Shown in pieces: positions 21,687 through 29,427 of a stretch of DNA of 64,000 nucleotides. The notes under the pieces are model-generated. The model did not search any database. It was not told the origin of the DNA and was given only the letters and a program-made list of their open reading frames with translations. The DNA lies in contig OZ252299.1 of NCBI GenBank assembly GCA_965250285.1, positions 384,001 to 448,000 on the forward strand, read 5' to 3'. Every line of letters starts with the position of its first letter. Position 1 is the first letter of the stretch. The translations under genes were made by a program, and so were the position numbers. This DNA is from Myxococcota bacterium (GTDB lineage Bacteria; Myxococcota_A; UBA9160; UBA4427).

Positions 21687-22205
21687 CTATGCGCCGGGAT
21701 CCGACCCGGCGCCGGTGAAGGGTTCGATCACATCGTGGCGCAGGGCGTCGAGGCATGCGCGCGGCGCGCCCGCGCGCTCGAGCGCCTGCTCGGTGTCGCG
21801 CAGGATCCGCGTGATGCGGTCGGCGCGTCCGACCTCGCCCGTCTCGAGCGCGTTGGTGTCGAAGAGAATCTCGTGACCGTCCGGGTCGCGTGTCGACCAG
21901 CAGGCCCCGTCGGCGTCGGCCGCGTTCTCGAGGTCATCGGCCCGGTAGCGGCGGGGCACTTCGCCGGGGGCGTCGGGCAGGGCGGCCGTGACCGCGCCGT
22001 GGATCGCGAAGGCGTCGCCCCCGCGCCAATTGAGCAGCGGCGCGTCGAGGAACGTCATGAGGGCGAGTCGGAAGGGGCCGTTGCGCAGGACGATGCGGAG
22101 GCCCGGGACTTCTTCGACGAGCTCCATGCCCAGGGCTTCGTAGAAGCGGCGGGAGCGCGCGAGATCGCGTGCGGGCAAGCAGAGCGAGGTCCAGCCGAAG
22201 TCCAT
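21687..22205 (-). CDS. VOC/glyoxalase family protein
   Basis: ARDLARSRRFYEALG and TRDPDGHEILFD. Confidence 0.8.
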   Translation of the reverse strand: MDFGWTSLCLPARDLARSRRFYEALGMELVEEVPGLRIVLRNGPFRLALMTFLDAPLLNWRGGDAFAIHGAVTAALPDAPGEVPRRYRADDLENAADADGACWSTRDPDGHEILFDTNALETGEVGRADRITRILRDTEQALERAGAPRACLDALRHDVIEPFTGAGSDPGA

Positions 22206-22265
22206 GGGCGCCTCCGAGAGCCCGTGCGCGGGCCCTCGGATGCTACCCCACGGCCAACCGCCACC

Positions 22266-22370
22266 TCAGGCCGGTGCGTACTCGACCAGCTCGAGGTCGA
22301 GGAGCCGGCGATAGAAGGCGATGGATCGGTCGAGATCGGTGACGGTCAGATTCACGTGCTCGAGAAACAT
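22266..22370 (-). pseudogene. 34-aa internally deleted VOC/glyoxalase remnant
   Basis: Read by hand: MFLEHVNLTVTDLDRSIAFYRRLLDLELVEYAPA*, RBS AAGGGAGA; VOC N-terminal strand-helix joined to a VOC-type C-terminal ELVEY. Confidence 0.7.
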
Positions 22371-22508
22371 ACGGGTCTCCCTTCGTCGGGCGGTGCGTCG
22401 AAGGGCAGCGTGCCTCAGGGGCGCTTGGGGCGGGGCGATCGCGCCGAGACATCGACGACGGGTTGGCGCGTCGACGGGGACGCCGGTTGATCCCCGGGGC
22501 GGGGCGCC

Positions 22509-23495
22509 TCAGCCGCCCCCCAACAGTGTGTCGATGGCGCGTTCAACGAGCGCGGCCAATGCCCAGGCGATCGGCGGGATGATCACGTAGACGAGCACGC
22601 GCGTGAGCAGTCGCAGGTCGAGGGGCCAGGTGCGCGCGTCGGCGAGTCGGTCGCGGTGGGCGAGCAGCTGCTCCAGCCGCACCGTTCCTTCGCTCGATTC
22701 GGCCGCGCGATCACCGATCGCGTCGAGCTGCTCTTCGACCCGGGCGAGGCGCGCGTCGCGGTCGGCGCGGATGCGGCGGTGCACGAGGCGAAGGGGCCAG
22801 ATCAGGTAGAACGCGAGCGACGGTGTCGCGACCAGCAGGGCGAAGCGGTAGTTGCCGGGGCGAAACTCGAAGTCGAGCGACTGGAGCGGCGCGAAAAGGA
22901 GGGCCCCCATCACGATCGCGGCGTCGAGCACTCCGTTTCGCGCCAGGGGCCGCAGTCGACCCAGCCGCAACACGTCGACGGGCAGCTTCTCGCCGAGGTG
23001 CGCGAAGACGTTGGCCGCGATCACGCGCACGCAGAGCACGTTGCCGATGACCGTCCACAGGAAGATCTGGCCCAGCGAGATCGAGAGCGCGATGAACGGG
23101 TAGGGCGCCTGGGTCGCCCAGAGCGGATTCGTGTTGAACAGGCTCAGCCCGAGTCCGAGCAGCGTACCGAGCCACCAGGTGCGGCCCCACGCCGAGGCGA
23201 TCGTATCGAGCGCGGTGTCGGCATCGGCGGGGTCGGTCAGCTGCGGGCGCAGCTCTTCGACGAGCTCGGCCGACCGGCGCTGGGTGATCGTCCAGGCCGC
23301 CGTCAGGTAGGTCGTGACGCCGATCAGCATGAGGGACATGCCGATCAGCTCGCGGGCCGCCCAGCCCCAACCGGGGCGGTCGGTCGTCGAGAACGTGCCG
23401 GCCGACACGTAGAGCACCGTCAACCCGACGAAGGCGCCGGCGGCGGCGAGCAGGCCCGGCGTGCCCCGGGTTCGTGTGAGCGTCCATCGACCCAT
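22509..23495 (-). CDS. Hypothetical multi-pass membrane protein
   Basis: About 7 hydrophobic segments, C-terminal TWP motif before the last TM; start uncertain. Confidence 0.7.
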   Translation of the reverse strand: MGRWTLTRTRGTPGLLAAAGAFVGLTVLYVSAGTFSTTDRPGWGWAARELIGMSLMLIGVTTYLTAAWTITQRRSAELVEELRPQLTDPADADTALDTIASAWGRTWWLGTLLGLGLSLFNTNPLWATQAPYPFIALSISLGQIFLWTVIGNVLCVRVIAANVFAHLGEKLPVDVLRLGRLRPLARNGVLDAAIVMGALLFAPLQSLDFEFRPGNYRFALLVATPSLAFYLIWPLRLVHRRIRADRDARLARVEEQLDAIGDRAAESSEGTVRLEQLLAHRDRLADARTWPLDLRLLTRVLVYVIIPPIAWALAALVERAIDTLLGGG

Positions 23496-23530
23496 CTCGC
23501 GCGAGCGTATCACCGCCGCGCCGATCGCGA

Positions 23531-24271
23531 TCAGTGACGATACTTGGCGTACATCCCCTCCACCCAGCGCAGGCCCGACTCGCCCGCCCAGCGCGCTCGC
23601 CACTCGACCATCGCCGGGCCGAGGTCTTCGGGCAACGTGGTGTGGAACCCGTCGGGATAGGTCGTGATCGAGAGCAGGGCGGCCGCCGTCAGGTCGGCCG
23701 CCGTGAAGTGATCGCCCACGAGGTGACCGCCGTTCTCGGCCGCCCGGGCCACCCGCGCGAAGGCTTCGGTCGTCGTCTCGAGCCCGGCCGCCGCGCCCGC
23801 CGCATCGATGCCCATCTCGCGCTTCATCACCCGGCGGAGGACCGGGAGCGCTGCGCGATAGAGCCGCTCGCGCAGCCCCCACGGCTCGCGCACGAAGATG
23901 CGTGCGACCGAGTCGAGGTCGGTGAGCAGCTCGTGGAAGAGCGCGAGCCGCACGGCCGGCCCGAGTTCGTCGTCGAACCACGCGATCGTCTCGACGCACT
24001 GCCGTCGCTCGGCCTCGTCGTGCGGGAAGAGCGGTCGCTCGGGCAGCCAGCGATCGAGGGCGAAGAGAATTTCGGTGCTGCCCGCGATGACTTCGCCGCC
24101 CCACTCGAGCACCGGCGTCTGCGTCTGGCCCGTCAGCTTGCGCATCGCTGCGGCATGCGGCCCCGGCCAGTGCTCGACGACCTCGTAGTCGAGCCCCTTC
24201 CACGCGAGGCCCCAGTGTGCCTTCTCGTTGAAGTGCGAGGCCCGAAAGCAGTGCAGGATCGGCTTCGTCAC
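23531..24271 (-). CDS. Glutathione S-transferase N-terminal domain protein
   Basis: SHFNEKAHWGL, TGQTQTPVL, GSTEI, FTAADLTAA; GTG start with GAAGGAG. Confidence 0.88.
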   Translation of the reverse strand: MTKPILHCFRASHFNEKAHWGLAWKGLDYEVVEHWPGPHAAAMRKLTGQTQTPVLEWGGEVIAGSTEILFALDRWLPERPLFPHDEAERRQCVETIAWFDDELGPAVRLALFHELLTDLDSVARIFVREPWGLRERLYRAALPVLRRVMKREMGIDAAGAAAGLETTTEAFARVARAAENGGHLVGDHFTAADLTAAALLSITTYPDGFHTTLPEDLGPAMVEWRARWAGESGLRWVEGMYAKYRH

Positions 24272-24355
24272 GGTCGGTTCTCCTTCGGCTCGCGTCGCGG
24301 CGCGAGGCGGTCTACGGGATCGAGCGCCGGGCACGGGGATACGACCGCACGCTGA

Positions 24356-24373
24356 ATATGAGCGCGAACATAT
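24356..24373. promoter_or_regulatory. Palindrome upstream of GST, candidate repressor site
   Basis: ATATG-N8-CATAT, AT-rich in GC-rich context, about 85 bp before the GST start. Confidence 0.4.
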
Positions 24374-24434
24374 CTGCCGTCGGACGCGTCAGCGGCTCGA
24401 GCGCACGACGCGGGCCTTCGCTCGGCGGTGGTCT

Positions 24435-24779
24435 TCATGCGCCGACGCCTCCGTCGATCGGCGACGCATCCTCGGCCGAGCCGAGGCGTACCCGGTCGAG
24501 GGGCAGCCCTCCCTCGCCCGGGTACGCGACCGGCACGGCCGGCTCGCAGCGTTGGCTGGTCTCGAGAACGGCCCGCTCCACCGCCCCCTCTTCGACCGGG
24601 CGTGCGACGCGCGGCGGGGCGTCGCCGGCCGGTGTCGCGCCAGCGCGCGCTCCCTCGAGGAGCGATACCGACACGACGAGCACGAGCAGCAGCAGGCCCA
24701 GCACGCCGGCGGAGACCAGGTGCCACACCACCTGCTCGGCCCGAACCTCGAGCCGTCGCTGTCCTTCGAACGGATTCAT
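24435..24779 (-). CDS. Small hypothetical single-pass membrane protein
   Basis: ATG with GGAGAGGGG RBS; TM VVWHLVSAGVLGLLLLVLVVSVSLL. Confidence 0.6.
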   Translation of the reverse strand: MNPFEGQRRLEVRAEQVVWHLVSAGVLGLLLLVLVVSVSLLEGARAGATPAGDAPPRVARPVEEGAVERAVLETSQRCEPAVPVAYPGEGGLPLDRVRLGSAEDASPIDGGVGA

Positions 24780-24979
24780 GACCCCTCTCCAATCGGTTCC
24801 AACGGGTGCCCGGCCTCGTCCGGCCACCCGACAGACGGAGGCCGAGACCCCCGACTGCGTGCTTCGGCGCGCCTCTGGCACGCCGTTTCCCCCTTCGCTC
24901 CGGCCGACTCGGGGCGTCCTGCCTCCTCCAGGACGCCTGCTCCCGGCGGTTTCGCCCGCGCTCGCGCAACACGAGCCCC

Positions 24980-25025
24980 AAAAAGCGAAAACCCCTTCGG
25001 CCTGCTGGCGAAGGGGTTCTCGTTT
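24980..25025 (-). terminator. Intrinsic terminator (attenuator-type)
   Basis: Minus strand AAACGAGAACCCCTTCG-CCAGCAGGC-CGAAGGGGTTTTCGCTTTTT; G-U pairing and U-tract fit the minus strand. Confidence 0.8.
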
Positions 25026-25048
25026 CGACTCGGTCTGGGATCGGGTTG

Positions 25049-25249
25049 CTAGACCCTTCCTCGCCAAGTCCCCCTTCGTGTGTGCCGCCCAACGCGGTCG
25101 ATCTTCGCGTCGAACGCACACTGCGTGATCTGGCCTGCCCACGGCTTGAGGCCGTTCTGGCCCGCAAACGCGCTCGAGACCGGCCCACGGGCCGACGCGT
25201 GCCCGGCGGGCACCGCGCGCATCTCGTTGTGGTTGCAGGTGAACGACAT
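25049..25249 (-). CDS. Putative leader peptide (66 aa, ends HTRRGTWRGRV)
   Basis: ATG preceded by GAAGGA; TAG lies about 24 nt before the terminator; last codons complementary to the terminator 5' arm. Confidence 0.5.
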   Translation of the reverse strand: MSFTCNHNEMRAVPAGHASARGPVSSAFAGQNGLKPWAGQITQCAFDAKIDRVGRHTRRGTWRGRV

Positions 25250-25354
25250 CAGTGAATCTCGATCCTTCAATGCAGACGATGCAGATGCGCGAGCGATGGA
25301 TGATGCCCGCGCGCTGAATGCGAAATCGGTGCGGAACTCGCACCGGCTGGCCCG

Positions 25355-25412
25355 TGTGTATCGGCGATCGCGGCCGGTGTCAAAGCAAAAAATGAGCCGA
25401 CACCAAAAAAAC
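25355..25412 (-). promoter_or_regulatory. Sigma70-like promoter with upstream T-tracts driving the leader
   Basis: Minus strand TTGACA (25378-25383)-17 bp-TACACA, preceded by two T6-7 tracts (UP-element-like). Confidence 0.55.
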
Positions 25413-25569
25413 ATTGACCCTGACACCACCGAGCGTCGCCCGCCCGACACCGAAGCGACTCATCGATACCGGGTCAGGTGGCGACCCCCGCAAGGCACGC
25501 AGCGACGAGCCCGCCCCCACCCCGCACTCCGTTGCGGGGCCGCCCGGGTGCCCCCGCCTCGGGCGCTCG

Positions 25570-26976
25570 CTACAGCAACTTCTTGATCATGTTCAGCTTC
25601 GAGTCGCTGTACGGCGGGTACACGAACTTGATGTCGAGCCAGGTGCCCCGGCGCATCACCGACTTCTGGTGCGAGAACGTGTCGAAGCTCGTGCGCCCGT
25701 GGTAGGCGCCCATCCCCGACTCGCCGACGCCGCCGAAGGGCATGTTCGGGTTGCCGATGTGCAGGATCGTGCCGTTCACGCAGACGCCCCCCGAGCTGGT
25801 CTCGGCGATCACGTGGTCGACGGCCTCCGCCTGCTCGCTGAACATGTAGAGCGCCAGCGGCTTATCGCGGCCATTGATGAACCGGATCGCCTCGTCGACG
25901 TCGTCGACGACCAGCAGGGGCAGGATCGGCCCGAAGATCTCCTCGGTCATCGCGCCCGACGTCGGGTCGACCCCCGTCAGGATCGTCGGCGCGATGTAGA
26001 GGTCGTCTTCGTCGGTCTCCCCGCCCACGACGGCCTCGCCGTCCTTCAGCAGGTTCGCGAGCCGCCGGTGGTGCCGGACGTTCACGATGCGGCCGAAGTC
26101 GTCGCTGTCGCGGGGCGAGTCGCCGTAGAAGTTCCGAATCTCGCCCTTCAGGGCGTCGATGAGATCGCCCTCCATGCCCCGCTCGACGAGCAGGTAGTCG
26201 GGCGCGATACACGTCTGGCCCGCGTTCAAGAACTTGCCCCAGGCGATGCGGCGGGCCGTGACGTCGAGCTTCGCGCTGCGGTCGACGATGCACGGGCTCT
26301 TTCCGCCGAGCTCGAGGGTGACGGGCGTCAGGTGCTTCGCCGCCGCCTCCATCACGATCCGGCCGACGGTGCCGTTGCCGGTGTACATGATGTGGTCGAA
26401 GCGCTGCTCGAGCAGCGCCGTCGTCTCTTCGACGCCGCCCTCGATGAGCACCACCGAGTCTCGGTCGAGGTACTTCGGGACCAGGTCGGCGAGCAGGGCG
26501 CTGGTGCGCGGCGTCACCTCGCTCGGCTTGAGGACGACGCAGTTGCCGGCCGCCAGCGCGCCGAGCAGCGGCGAGATCAGCAGCTGCACGGGGTAGTTCC
26601 AGGGCGAGATGATCAGCACGACGCCGAGCGGATCGCTCACGATCTCGCTCTTCGAGGGGAACGTCTGCACGGCCCCCTTCACCTTGCGCGGCTTCATCCA
26701 CTTCTTGACCGACTTCGCGACCTGCTTGGCCTCGTCGGCGATGATCGCGATGTCGGCGGCGTAGGCCTCGAGCGCCGGCTTGCCGACATCGAGGTGCAGG
26801 GCCTCGGCGAACGCGTCGGCGTGGTCGCGCATCATGTCGCGCACACGCTCGATCTGCTGGATGCGCCACTCGGCCGGGCGGGTCAGGCCCGAGTCGAAGG
26901 TGGCGCGCAGGCGCGCGACGTCGTCGGCGATGCCCTCGACGGGCGTCTGGGGCACGGGGATGGGCTCGGCAGCCAT
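25570..26976 (-). CDS. Aldehyde dehydrogenase (ALDH3/coniferyl-aldehyde-like)
   Basis: SPWNYP, LKPSE, TLELGGKSP, GQTCIAPDY, EEIFGP, PFGGVGESG. Confidence 0.96.
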   Translation of the reverse strand: MAAEPIPVPQTPVEGIADDVARLRATFDSGLTRPAEWRIQQIERVRDMMRDHADAFAEALHLDVGKPALEAYAADIAIIADEAKQVAKSVKKWMKPRKVKGAVQTFPSKSEIVSDPLGVVLIISPWNYPVQLLISPLLGALAAGNCVVLKPSEVTPRTSALLADLVPKYLDRDSVVLIEGGVEETTALLEQRFDHIMYTGNGTVGRIVMEAAAKHLTPVTLELGGKSPCIVDRSAKLDVTARRIAWGKFLNAGQTCIAPDYLLVERGMEGDLIDALKGEIRNFYGDSPRDSDDFGRIVNVRHHRRLANLLKDGEAVVGGETDEDDLYIAPTILTGVDPTSGAMTEEIFGPILPLLVVDDVDEAIRFINGRDKPLALYMFSEQAEAVDHVIAETSSGGVCVNGTILHIGNPNMPFGGVGESGMGAYHGRTSFDTFSHQKSVMRRGTWLDIKFVYPPYSDSKLNMIKKLL

Positions 26977-27129
26977 GGGCAGGTCCTCTCGATCGGGGTG
27001 GGCGCGCGGTTCGGCGCCGTGGCCCCGAGATTCTACGAGGTGCGTTCGAGGCGGGCCATCCCAGCGGGGTCGAGCGCCCGGCCGGCCAAGGGGCGCAGGC
27101 AGCGCCGGACCGTGGGCGCCGAGGTGGGG

Positions 27130-27861
27130 TCAGGCCGGTGCGACCTCGCTGACCGAGATCCGGCCGCCCATGCACACGTCGACGTCGGCGCCCGAGAGCC
27201 GTGCCCGGCCGTGGTAGTCGGCTCCGTTCAGGTAGCCCTCGGTCCCGATCTCGAACGTGACCGGCAGCGGACTCGGATCGACGGGGCAGACCGACCAGCT
27301 GGTGTCGACGGCCTCGTCCGGCGGGTGCGGCAGATTCACGTTCCAGTAGGCGTACGCCGTCGGGGGTCGATCCAGCAGGTGGTCGAGCACCGGACGGGCC
27401 CGTTCCATCGTCGCCTGCCAGTCGATCGTGCGATGTCGGGCCTGGTACTGCGAGATGGCGATCGCCGGCGTGCCGCGAAGCCCGGCCTCGCGCGCCGCGG
27501 CCGCCGTGCCCGAGACGAACGTGTCGGTGCCGAGGTTGGCGCCGTGATTGATGCCGGCGATCACCCAGTCGACGGGGCGCGGGTGCGCGGCGGCGTGGGC
27601 GGGCCAGAGCGGCCCGCCGCGGGCGAGGGCGAGGCGAGCGCAGTCGGCGGGCGTGCCCGAGGCGGCGATGCGGTCGGCCCCGCGTGCGTCGGCCTCGATG
27701 TGCCGCCCCGATTGCGCCAAAGCGTGACCGATGCCGCTGCGGGGCCCGTCGGGAGCGATCACGATCAGGTCGGCTTCGGGGCGAAGTGCGCGCAGGGTCG
27801 TCTCGAGGGCCTCGATCCCCGGCGCGTCGATGCCGTCGTCGTTGGTGATCACGATCCGCAC
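27130..27861 (-). CDS. surE: 5'/3'-nucleotidase SurE
   Basis: ITNDDGIDAPG, SGTPADC, GINHGANLG..SGT, NVNLP. Confidence 0.92.
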   Translation of the reverse strand: MRIVITNDDGIDAPGIEALETTLRALRPEADLIVIAPDGPRSGIGHALAQSGRHIEADARGADRIAASGTPADCARLALARGGPLWPAHAAAHPRPVDWVIAGINHGANLGTDTFVSGTAAAAREAGLRGTPAIAISQYQARHRTIDWQATMERARPVLDHLLDRPPTAYAYWNVNLPHPPDEAVDTSWSVCPVDPSPLPVTFEIGTEGYLNGADYHGRARLSGADVDVCMGGRISVSEVAPA

Positions 27862-28134
27862 GGCGGCGGAGCCTAGCAGCCGGTTCGGCCTCGACGCGCC
27901 GTCCTCGGGTGCGCGACCCCGTCGGGCCGGCGGCTCGGAGGCCGGTCGCTGGCCGGCTGCCGATCGGCTGCAGGCGGGTTGCGGGGCGGGTGCAGCGAAG
28001 CGCGACAGGATCTGGATTGTGTGCGTTTTTTCCTTCACTCGACGGGACGCCGGACGAAAAGGCCTGTGCGAGGCTGTGCGCTCGAGTGCCTCCCCCCTTT
28101 CAACCTCCTCGACGCGCGCAGCGGAGGACCCCCG

Positions 28135-28722
28135 TTGAAGACCACCCCCGAAGAATCCGACCGCCTGCGCGGCTGGCTCGGCGACGGCCTCATCTCGGCC
28201 TCTCGTCAGCTGAGCGACGCGCACTCGGCCGAGACCCGAGTGCACGTGCTGCACGCCCGGGCGTTTCCGCTCGATCAGTTCGGCGAGCTGGGCCTGCATG
28301 GGGACGAAGACGATCTCGTCGCCGGCGCCCTCACCGCCTGTCGCGGTGACCTTTCGGGCGCCGCGCTGCTCCACATGGATCCCGAGGCTGCGCTCGCGTG
28401 GTCGCGCGCGCTGGCGCCCGGCGCGGACGCGATCGCCACCTTCCTCGGTGCCGGCGACGTCCTGCTCGGCTCGGTGATCCGCGCTGCGAGTGACGTGCTC
28501 GGGCTCCCGACCGAGCTCGGCGCGTGCCAGCTGGTCGAGGACACCCTCGGCGGTTGTCTGCTCGCGACCCATGCCCCGCCCGACACGGTGCTGATCGGCG
28601 CCAAGCTGGTCGTCGAGACCGGCGCAGAAGGGGCCGCCGACGAGCAGACGCACGACGCCACGTTCCATCTGCTGCTCGACGGCAAGCTCGTCGGCGCGAT
28701 GCTGCAGACGATCGTCGAGTAG
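28135..28722 (+). CDS. Hypothetical protein, degenerate CheC/CheX-like fold
   Basis: TTG with GGAGG RBS; G...ASRQLS and RGDLSGAALL patterns resemble CheC, but no E-x-x-N motif. Confidence 0.5.
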   Translation: MKTTPEESDRLRGWLGDGLISASRQLSDAHSAETRVHVLHARAFPLDQFGELGLHGDEDDLVAGALTACRGDLSGAALLHMDPEAALAWSRALAPGADAIATFLGAGDVLLGSVIRAASDVLGLPTELGACQLVEDTLGGCLLATHAPPDTVLIGAKLVVETGAEGAADEQTHDATFHLLLDGKLVGAMLQTIVE

Positions 28723-28812
28723 CCCGGGTTTCCGAGCGCGCGCGAAGCTCGTCGACCGGGTGCGCGCGTGCCGGCTCGGCAGCGCGGCACAGCTCGCGTA
28801 TCGTCCGCACCC

Positions 28813-29427
28813 ATGATCTATTGGATCCGCCACGGTGAGACGCCGGGCAACCGCGACCGTCGGGTCCAGGTGCCCGAGACGCCTCTGTCGGATCGCGGTC
28901 TCGCTCAGGCGGCCCGTCTGGGCGAGCGCCTGCGAGATGCAGGGCTGGTGCGCCTGCTCTCGAGCGACCTCGCCCGGGCGCGCATGACCGCCGAGGCGGT
29001 TGCCGCGACCACGGGCCTCGCGCCCGAGCTGCACGACGTCTACCAGGAGCGCAACTTCGGCGATCTGCGCGGCACGCTCTACGCCGACCTCGAGTTCGAT
29101 CTATTCGGCCCCGACGTCGAGCCGCCGGCCGGCGAGTCGTGGCCGGTATTTCACGCGCGGGCCGACCGGGCGTGGACGCATGCGCTCGCGGCCGCTGCCG
29201 AGGCCGAAGGCCCGATCGCGGTCGTGACCCACGGTCTGGTCCTCGGCTCGGTGCTCGGGCGATCCGTCGGGGGCGGCGATGGGCCGATGCACTTCGGCAA
29301 CACGTCGGTCTCGATCACGGTCCCGGCCGACGATCGGCCGAGCGGCTGGCGGCTCGAGCTGCTCGACTGCACCGAGCACCTCGACGCGGCGATGGCCGAT
29401 GATGCCGGGGGCATTTCGGGGATCTGA
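28813..29427 (+). CDS. Histidine phosphatase (phosphoglycerate mutase-like) family protein
   Basis: IRHGET, SSDLARA, ERNFG, GES, VTHG. Confidence 0.93.
   Translation: MIYWIRHGETPGNRDRRVQVPETPLSDRGLAQAARLGERLRDAGLVRLLSSDLARARMTAEAVAATTGLAPELHDVYQERNFGDLRGTLYADLEFDLFGPDVEPPAGESWPVFHARADRAWTHALAAAAEAEGPIAVVTHGLVLGSVLGRSVGGGDGPMHFGNTSVSITVPADDRPSGWRLELLDCTEHLDAAMADDAGGISGI

Follow-up and report, generated by a model that had tools for sequence, protein, structure and literature searches.

The minus strand of positions 24980-25412 in our window, a 64,000-nt stretch of the Myxococcota bacterium contig OZ252299.1, very probably carries a real and conserved ribosome-coupled transcription attenuator, judging from comparative analysis and RNA folding. 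A promoter, an upstream ORF (uORF) of 49–116 codons, a terminator hairpin and a gene for a small one-helix membrane protein recur in this order at 56 loci, related but free of redundancy, which makes the layout more than chance. With distinctly less assurance, we favour a version of this attenuator in which a single Trp codon in the middle of the uORF is the tuning site, as codon counts and predicted folds suggest. Profile and sequence comparison identify the controlled gene as what is left of an RND-efflux adaptor, namely its N-terminal anchor, and its substitution pattern places it under purifying selection.

Architecture of the leader

All the elements named in a sequence-only reading of this DNA are present at their minus-strand positions. 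T-tracts (25386-25412) precede TTGACA (25383-25378), which is followed after 17 nt by TACACA (25360-25355). An ORF of 66 aa (25249-25049, minus strand) ends in TRRGTWRGRV and TAG, and the strong terminator reported shortly after it corresponds to a hairpin at 25023-24980, 25–27 nt past the stop. CGA and AGG are indeed uncommon, accounting for 13 and 2 of the 163 Arg codons in eight window genes.

Table 1 Features of the probable attenuator locus and its neighbours in the window.
Feature	Positions	Strand	Remarks
T-rich tract, putatively UP-element-like	25386–25412	minus	A/T-rich upstream of the −35 in 52 aligned promoters
−35 box	25378–25385	minus	CTTTGAC invariant in 52/52 promoters, fixed spacing
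−10 region	25355–25364	minus	CCGATA nearly invariant, 13 nt past the −35 hexamer
Shine-Dalgarno-like word of the uORF	25263–25268	minus	SD-like word before 53/56 chosen starts, a count that is partly a product of start selection
uORF, 66 codons	25049–25249	minus	near-neutral sequence across the family; frame and stop kept
W37 codon, predicted sensing codon	25139–25141	minus	single mid-ORF Trp, in frame in 54/56
Hairpin immediately 5′ of the antiterminator strand, possible pause	25080–25121	minus	z < −2 in 9/56 loci, not family-wide
Antiterminator 5′ strand (region 2)	25064–25078	minus	duplicates the terminator 3′ arm; a further 7 nt pair with 25027–25033
Alternative pairing strand of the sequence-only reading	25054–25066	minus	weaker second register; only in the window's genus-level group
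Strand extending the antiterminator helix in the window genome	25027–25033	minus	predicted by folding
Terminator-like hairpin	24980–25023	minus	5′ arm 25023–25007; 3′ arm and U-rich tail 25002–24980
Ribosome-binding site of the controlled gene	24782–24790	minus	
Controlled gene, 114 aa	24435–24779	minus	truncated N-terminal anchor of an RND-efflux periplasmic adaptor, by sequence comparison
GST gene	23531–24271	minus	local neighbour, outside the conserved unit
Aldehyde dehydrogenase gene, upstream	25570–26976	minus	
surE	27130–27900		directly upstream of the promoter in most relatives

The regular expression used in the promoter search contained TTGA[CA], and the leading CT of the −35 box lies outside it. 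T occupies the final position of the −10 hexamer in only 2 of 52 promoters, which leaves the sigma factor uncertain; we take the −10 region to be sigma-28-like in look, and the strictness of the promoter, with its CTTTGAC and CCGATA at a set distance, may point to a non-housekeeping sigma factor. Six sites in the window genome match a similar loose promoter pattern. A promoter and terminator consensus scanner called neither element in 22000-28000; the −10 lacks its last T and the stem contains a C.C mismatch.

Upstream of the leader stands surE in 45 of 56 cases and an aldehyde dehydrogenase gene in three. The GST gene, which the sequence-only reading had noted after the small membrane protein gene, follows in just 3 of the 43 loci with enough sequence, and on that count we rejected it as a regulated target. 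The neighbourhood at 27130-29427, with surE and divergent CheC-like and histidine-phosphatase-like genes (the last two named by eye), is itself conserved and recurs in G003 and G005. Several G+C-rich hairpins lie between the terminator and the start of the small gene (24860-24975, minus strand); jointly they do not exceed shuffles (z −1.8), and they are poorly kept in the genus mate.

Conservation and spread

A genus mate keeps the promoter, start, frame and hairpin, with every indel a multiple of three and the uORF stop swapped from TAG to TGA. A hairpin pattern led to 22 loci in species-representative genomes, and all 23 loci, the window's included, have the promoter (complete in 22), the uORF, the hairpin and the same small gene. 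Four of the eleven matches of one pattern search were chance hits inside coding sequence.

Against the circularity of pattern-selected loci, we added a protein-profile search of 225 genomes of the class. At E <= 0.01 the profile matches 40 of the 225; the figures are 36 of 67 for the window's family and 28 of 31 for its largest genus. The locus check covered 35 profile loci with E no higher than 0.002, 22 of them already known and 13 new. In twelve of the 13 new loci the hairpin is present and shows compensatory changes near the base of its stem, and the thirteenth, without the layout, is a weak match within an unrelated ORF. A metagenome scan gave 49 loci, which we sorted into 39 of the family, seven of a second kind and three unrelated terminators. 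Removal of near-duplicates, the truncated L077 and L091 (whose ORF failed the calling rule) left the 56 non-redundant leaders.

The strict window-type terminator pattern occurs in 7 of 401 phylum genomes, all from the window's family, and in none of the viral contigs, and a pattern for the RND-type leader described below occurs in 2 of the 401; these figures refer to exact patterns and to a sample. Neither blastn nor a WR-motif scan finds a second copy in the window's own genome, and a strict terminator-plus-uORF scan, which also missed the window locus itself, gives no convincing paralogue. Three contig runs from a single study match the stretch without any difference and may be where it comes from. 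The window locus ranks 746th of 2683 in a genome-wide duplex ranking that is too loose to inform.

Competing RNA folds

Folding of both conformers predicts a terminator and a competing antiterminator. The terminator region (24975-25030) folds at −29.3 kcal/mol (z −3.8), with none of 200 shuffles as good, and RNA ending before the 3′ arm is predicted to adopt an alternative hairpin of −34.3 kcal/mol (z −3.9) where 25078-25064 finds its partners in the terminator 5′ arm and in 25033-25027. As the sequence-only reading had observed, CGAAGGGG at 25078-25071 is identical to the terminator 3′ arm. That reading had also proposed pairing of TGGCGAGGAAGGG (25066-25054) with the 5′ arm; this pairing can form, as a weaker register (−16.8) than the preferred antiterminator of CGAAGGGG plus GACTTGG (−23.0). 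Conservation and folding together favour its proposal that the two structures are mutually exclusive.

Of the 56 loci, 51 retain the C.C mismatch in the terminator stem, and the stem also shows compensatory changes. The mismatch, between 25007-25012 and 24996-25002, lies beneath the uppermost three base pairs; it reappears when the antiterminator forms and may tune the balance between the two folds. The U-tracts are weak, with 2–6 T within 9 nt after the G run, and the scanner called no terminator. Rfam covariance models give no match at the gathering score in the window and, in five related loci, one chance miRNA match far below the cut-off.

When paired with the terminator 5′ arm, region 2 outscores every control window at 18 of the 23 loci, and at the other five it outscores at least 93% of them; the test is partly circular, because region 2 was located by a purine-run pattern, and was made on related loci. 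Cognate pairs beat swapped pairs on average (0.00075), with the cognate best in only 2 of 23 rows. Compensatory events are few, which counts against the pairing. A second helix, between region 2 and the ribosome-binding site of the uORF, scores as a strong duplex in 18 of 23 loci but is absent from the window and from its genus mate. This helix wins in 4 of 56 full folds without a ribosome; we therefore rejected it as a universal part and kept it as auxiliary.

A drifting peptide over a conserved RNA strand

The uORF peptide has a mean column identity of 18%, and Met1 is the sole invariant residue among 23 uORFs. In five groups of close loci, uORF pN is close to pS, and anchor-gene pN lies well below pS. 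The region 2 strand is read in all three frames, divided 32/19/5 over the 56 loci (a few automatic placements being wrong) and 16/4/3 in the 23 checked by hand, so that the same RNA encodes Glu-Gly-Asp, Gly-Gly-Leu or Arg-Gly-Thr in relatives. Because the strand is kept and yet read in three frames, the rare Arg codons in the window appear to be a by-product of an RNA requirement. Arrest-peptide leaders of the TnaC or SecM kind have a conserved C-terminal arrest motif; our test for such a motif finds none conserved, the C termini being read in three frames. The uORFs tolerate short tandem duplications (L052, L098, L047, L079 and L081). The L098 leader holds three copies of the antiterminator strand, and that of L052 is seemingly frameshifted and has no in-frame Trp.

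Alternatively, the uORF with its hairpin could be an independent small gene or sRNA ending in a leaky constitutive terminator; expression of the anchor would then depend on leakage or on a separate promoter, and the complementarity would be incidental. Weak U-tracts would suit such an arrangement, as would spacers of up to 289 nt that could house a promoter, and in L116 a near-identical hairpin is apparently a plain terminator after an L25-like ribosomal gene. The unconserved uORF product, by identity and by pN alike, speaks against it, as do the retention of the complementary strand in three frames and the presence of a different terminator, with its own matching strand, before full-length efflux operons. 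Moreover, 14 of the 52 terminator-to-start spacers do not exceed 70 nt, which leaves little room for a promoter of its own, and only 3 of 52 spacers contain TTGAC. We judge this arrangement improbable.

Predicted response to the ribosome

Nascent transcripts reaching as far as the terminator loop were folded with 30 nt covered by each ribosome, which yields an equilibrium prediction. The antiterminator has P > 0.5 in 39 of 56 loci without a ribosome and in 46 with a ribosome at the start codon. The number is again 39 for a ribosome at the Trp codon alone, rises to 51 for a queue up to the Trp codon, and falls to 31 for a ribosome at the stop codon and to a single locus for one on region 2. For the window, P is predicted to be 0.94 with the ribosome at W37, 0.00–0.15 at codons 58-64 and 0.95 at the stop. 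Delay upstream is thus predicted to favour read-through, and passage over region 2 to favour termination. Because the stop-codon ribosome is non-blocking in 31 of 56 loci and the antiterminator forms in 39 of 56 without any ribosome, the switch would depend on kinetics.

These predictions bear on the version given in the sequence-only reading, where stalling on the C-terminal Arg and Trp codons (RRGTWRGRV) under Trp or Arg shortage turns the gene on. Rare CGA and AGG codons and W62 are present in the window and common to the genus mate and one metagenome locus. However, a WRG ending is found in just 3 of 56 uORFs. The codons are themselves the antiterminator strand, which relatives read in other frames. 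A ribosome at codons 58-64 is predicted to keep the antiterminator from forming, so that a stall on RRGTWRG would bring termination. We hold this version to be very improbable. Of the ribosome-mediated attenuation first proposed, the layout and the predicted exclusive folds thus stand, whereas the signal at the C-terminal Trp and rare Arg codons is not supported.

A single conserved Trp codon

In 54 of 56 uORFs an in-frame TGG lies between the start and region 2, and in 50 there is exactly one; among the loci collected after the idea arose, 32 of 33 have it. The other two frames hold an equal total of TGG, yet have none in 18 and 24 of the 56. Among 125 triplet-frame classes, TGG has the lowest variance-to-mean ratio (0.10); Cys (0.38) and internal Met (0.45) are the next lowest among residues and are also under-dispersed. 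All 26 sequence clusters contain a Trp, against 16.0 expected from position-preserving shuffles (5e-6), where each cluster gave one representative without detectable DNA similarity to the others and the clusters, not fully independent, were treated as such. In the window, the conserved residue is W37 and not W62. Its codon ranges from position 4 to 82 and from 19 to 223 nt before region 2, with variable flanks. The uORFs without Trp are two in the family and the RND-linked L165. No such leader is seen at the trpE operon of the window genome, and we know of no link of the pump or the anchor to Trp.

The same switch could work differently, with the conserved Trp as a nascent-peptide residue in ligand- or drug-dependent arrest, or with the leader as a general translation-stress sensor in which several costly residues are kept. 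His is under-dispersed along with Cys and Met, W-x-C is found 12 times, and exactly one Trp is retained rather than several, all of which would fit, as would an ancestral target of the drug-efflux type, as with PA5471.1/armZ (PMC12057347). Against these points, no residue is conserved at a fixed distance from the Trp, whose own distance to region 2 varies more than tenfold. Furthermore, L053 and L104 lose the aligned Trp and have another elsewhere in the uORF (by eye), a relocation that fits a codon requirement better than a peptide motif. We regard arrest or general stress sensing as rather unlikely and retain the Trp codon as the favoured tuning site.

Origin of the controlled gene

The product described in the sequence-only reading as an unknown membrane protein is identified by a profile and by intermediates as the N-terminal anchor of an RND adaptor. 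The 114-aa protein matches no Pfam and no NCBIfam family, and a SecE-like identity, suggested by its look, was rejected for want of support in either. It is predicted to consist of one long helix (residues 7-47) and a disordered tail. Compared with TIGR01730 adaptors, it aligns through its anchor with the N terminus of P0057 and lacks the folded lipoyl, hairpin and barrel domains.

Among 1.84 billion proteins the anchor profile retrieves 91, including P0057 (396 aa), matched at its N-terminal anchor with E 4e-12; P0057 is an RND periplasmic adaptor (TIGR01730, 208.6 bits against a cut-off of 94.9). Since direct BLASTP between the window protein and P0057 covers only 24 residues (E 1e-5), descent from an adaptor is argued from the profile and the intermediates. 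The latter comprise truncated forms of 221, 145 and 133 aa and internal deletions that keep the C-terminal part of the adaptor (G005, P0067 and L096). In L096, and likewise in G005, a window-type leader stands directly before the internally deleted adaptor. The descent is traced through P0057, P0054, P0056, P0060, P0067, L096 and G005. Used as a query, residues 1-90 of P0057 retrieved no homologue besides P0057 itself, and no full-length adaptor was seen directly behind a window-type terminator. The window genome has at least ten RND permeases, and none is an orthologue of the partner permease (best 31%, against 50–68% among orthologues). The gene would thus have shrunk from a pump adaptor of 370–396 aa, via internal deletions, to a selected membrane peptide of 73–114 aa with its regulator intact, a clear case of micro-protein birth by truncation.

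Leaders before RND operons and a cyclase gene

Other families of the class have close full-length adaptors that share 41–52% identity with P0057. Six of ten such loci have a uORF-terminator leader and four do not, and an RND permease gene follows in five of the six. The RND-linked terminator lies 25–27 nt after the uORF stop (measured in four loci); its stem sequence is different, and its pairing strand straddles the stop codon. In the four loci computed, the antiterminator P of 0.83, 0.90, 0.88 and 0.23 is predicted to fall to 0.00 with a ribosome at the stop. Five of the six RND-linked uORFs contain Trp (three by script, two by eye). Promoter shape, spacing, the QHAAMR word (L164, L045) and the Trp suggest that both leader types are of common descent. 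The other terminator sequence of the RND-linked leaders and the lipoprotein-type N terminus of their adaptors count against the favoured account as a whole. L168 (G136) has a full-length adaptor and a leader with no permease behind; the operon of this other family may have begun to decay in the same way.

Seven metagenome loci (L101, L103, L108, L117, L120, L129 and L136) have a near-identical terminator, here with a full U-tract, downstream of a short uORF whose last residues are LRAWRG(G/R)EAL. They are flanked on one side by a glycerophosphodiester phosphodiesterase gene and on the other by a gene for a stand-alone class III adenylate/guanylate cyclase domain (PF00211; 464-1153 on the minus strand of L120), with apparent rpsU and cvpA genes following. 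Here the copy of the 3′ arm comes directly after the Trp codon, and a ribosome at this Trp is predicted to block the antiterminator, one six codons earlier not (six loci). The same hairpin is also found on an unrelated contig (L116, ~1201-1233) between L25-like and peptidyl-tRNA hydrolase-like genes, named by eye, and may be a convergence or a further attenuator. Two identical terminator-like hairpins stand 54 nt apart at G000:C1:6192013-6192110.

Proposed mechanism

In our model, transcription would start at the conserved promoter, whose sequence is evident and whose use we infer, and the uORF would be translated, as the conservation of its frame, stop and Trp codon suggests. A ribosome keeping pace would cover region 2 (codons ~58-64) during synthesis of the hairpin, leading on folding and kinetic grounds to the terminator. 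A ribosome or queue delayed upstream, most likely at the single Trp, would leave region 2 available to the 5′ arm, and read-through would follow. Such delay could result from scarce or poorly decoded Trp-tRNA and probably also from ribosome-targeting drugs. The ancestral output would have been an operon of adaptor and RND permease, the layout of five loci, given homology of the leaders. In the window's family the permease would have been lost, the anchor micro-protein remaining under purifying selection; our guess is that it modulates the cell's other RND pumps.

More tentatively, the one in-frame UGG in a drifting uORF may be a dedicated Trp-tRNA gauge that once switched on an RND operon. The switch would then have outlived the pump and would now control a micro-protein born from its anchor, with a sister leader controlling a stand-alone nucleotide cyclase in another lineage. 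We hold this full account to be less likely than not. If true, such a gauge could answer, for example, to TrpRS inhibitors or indole-type compounds. Streptomyces has a trpRS1/indolmycin attenuator.

Comparison with known attenuators

An attenuator based on a uORF before whiB7/wblC was reportedly described by Lee et al. in 2022. There, a long, variable uORF controls an intrinsic terminator, efficient translation leads to termination (10.1101/2023.06.02.543512; PMC11550727), and in M. smegmatis a single Trp codon of the whiB7 uORF confers a response to Trp limitation (10.1101/2023.06.02.543512). The Myxococcota leaders share with these a long uORF of variable length and sequence, an antiterminator strand at its end and a terminator beyond. 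They differ in belonging to another phylum, with no gene in common and an efflux-adaptor remnant in place of WhiB7; the conserved residue is Trp here and Ala there, and we see no WhiB7-type feedback. A comparison of the leaders with Rfam gave no match.

The PA5471.1 leader of armZ, which acts on MexXY in P. aeruginosa, likewise ties ribosome trouble to RND efflux through leader-peptide attenuation (PMC12057347). There, the target is an anti-repressor and the pump is reached indirectly; in our loci, adaptor and permease, or the remnant of the adaptor, follow the leader without an intermediary, and the uORF is long. The S. meliloti duf1127-1 attenuator, Rho-dependent through an element at the uORF start (PMC12218461), resembles ours in having a uORF that senses the state of translation before a small gene, and in a ribosome-binding site that can pair with uORF sequence. 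It differs from our leaders, which have a conserved hairpin and a competing strand at the uORF end.

Among classical trp attenuators are E. coli trpL, with tandem Trp codons, and P. aeruginosa trpL1/trpL2 (PMC13434334). They are alike in placing Trp upstream of the antiterminator strand and in the 1:2, 2:3 and 3:4 alternatives. They have two or more Trp codons where our uORFs of 49–116 codons have one, and a biosynthetic target; the window has no 1:2 helix, and only 4 of 56 ribosome-free folds favour it. We rejected a classical trp attenuator, as exactly one Trp precedes region 2 in 50 of 56 uORFs and the target is an efflux-adaptor remnant or an adaptor with its permease.

We found no description of this element in the open-licence literature searched. 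Long-uORF attenuation, so far mainly the actinomycete whiB7/wblC case, is thereby extended to an uncultured class of Myxococcota, and 56 leaders with one kept codon offer a natural series for asking whether a single codon can be a selected amino-acid sensor. The kind of switch is known; what is new is a single selected codon in a long drifting uORF, a direct link to an RND operon, and a switch standing before a truncated anchor. On the modelled behaviour, the element is likely an attenuator of the whiB7 and PA5471.1 sort, tuned by one Trp codon and a member of neither.
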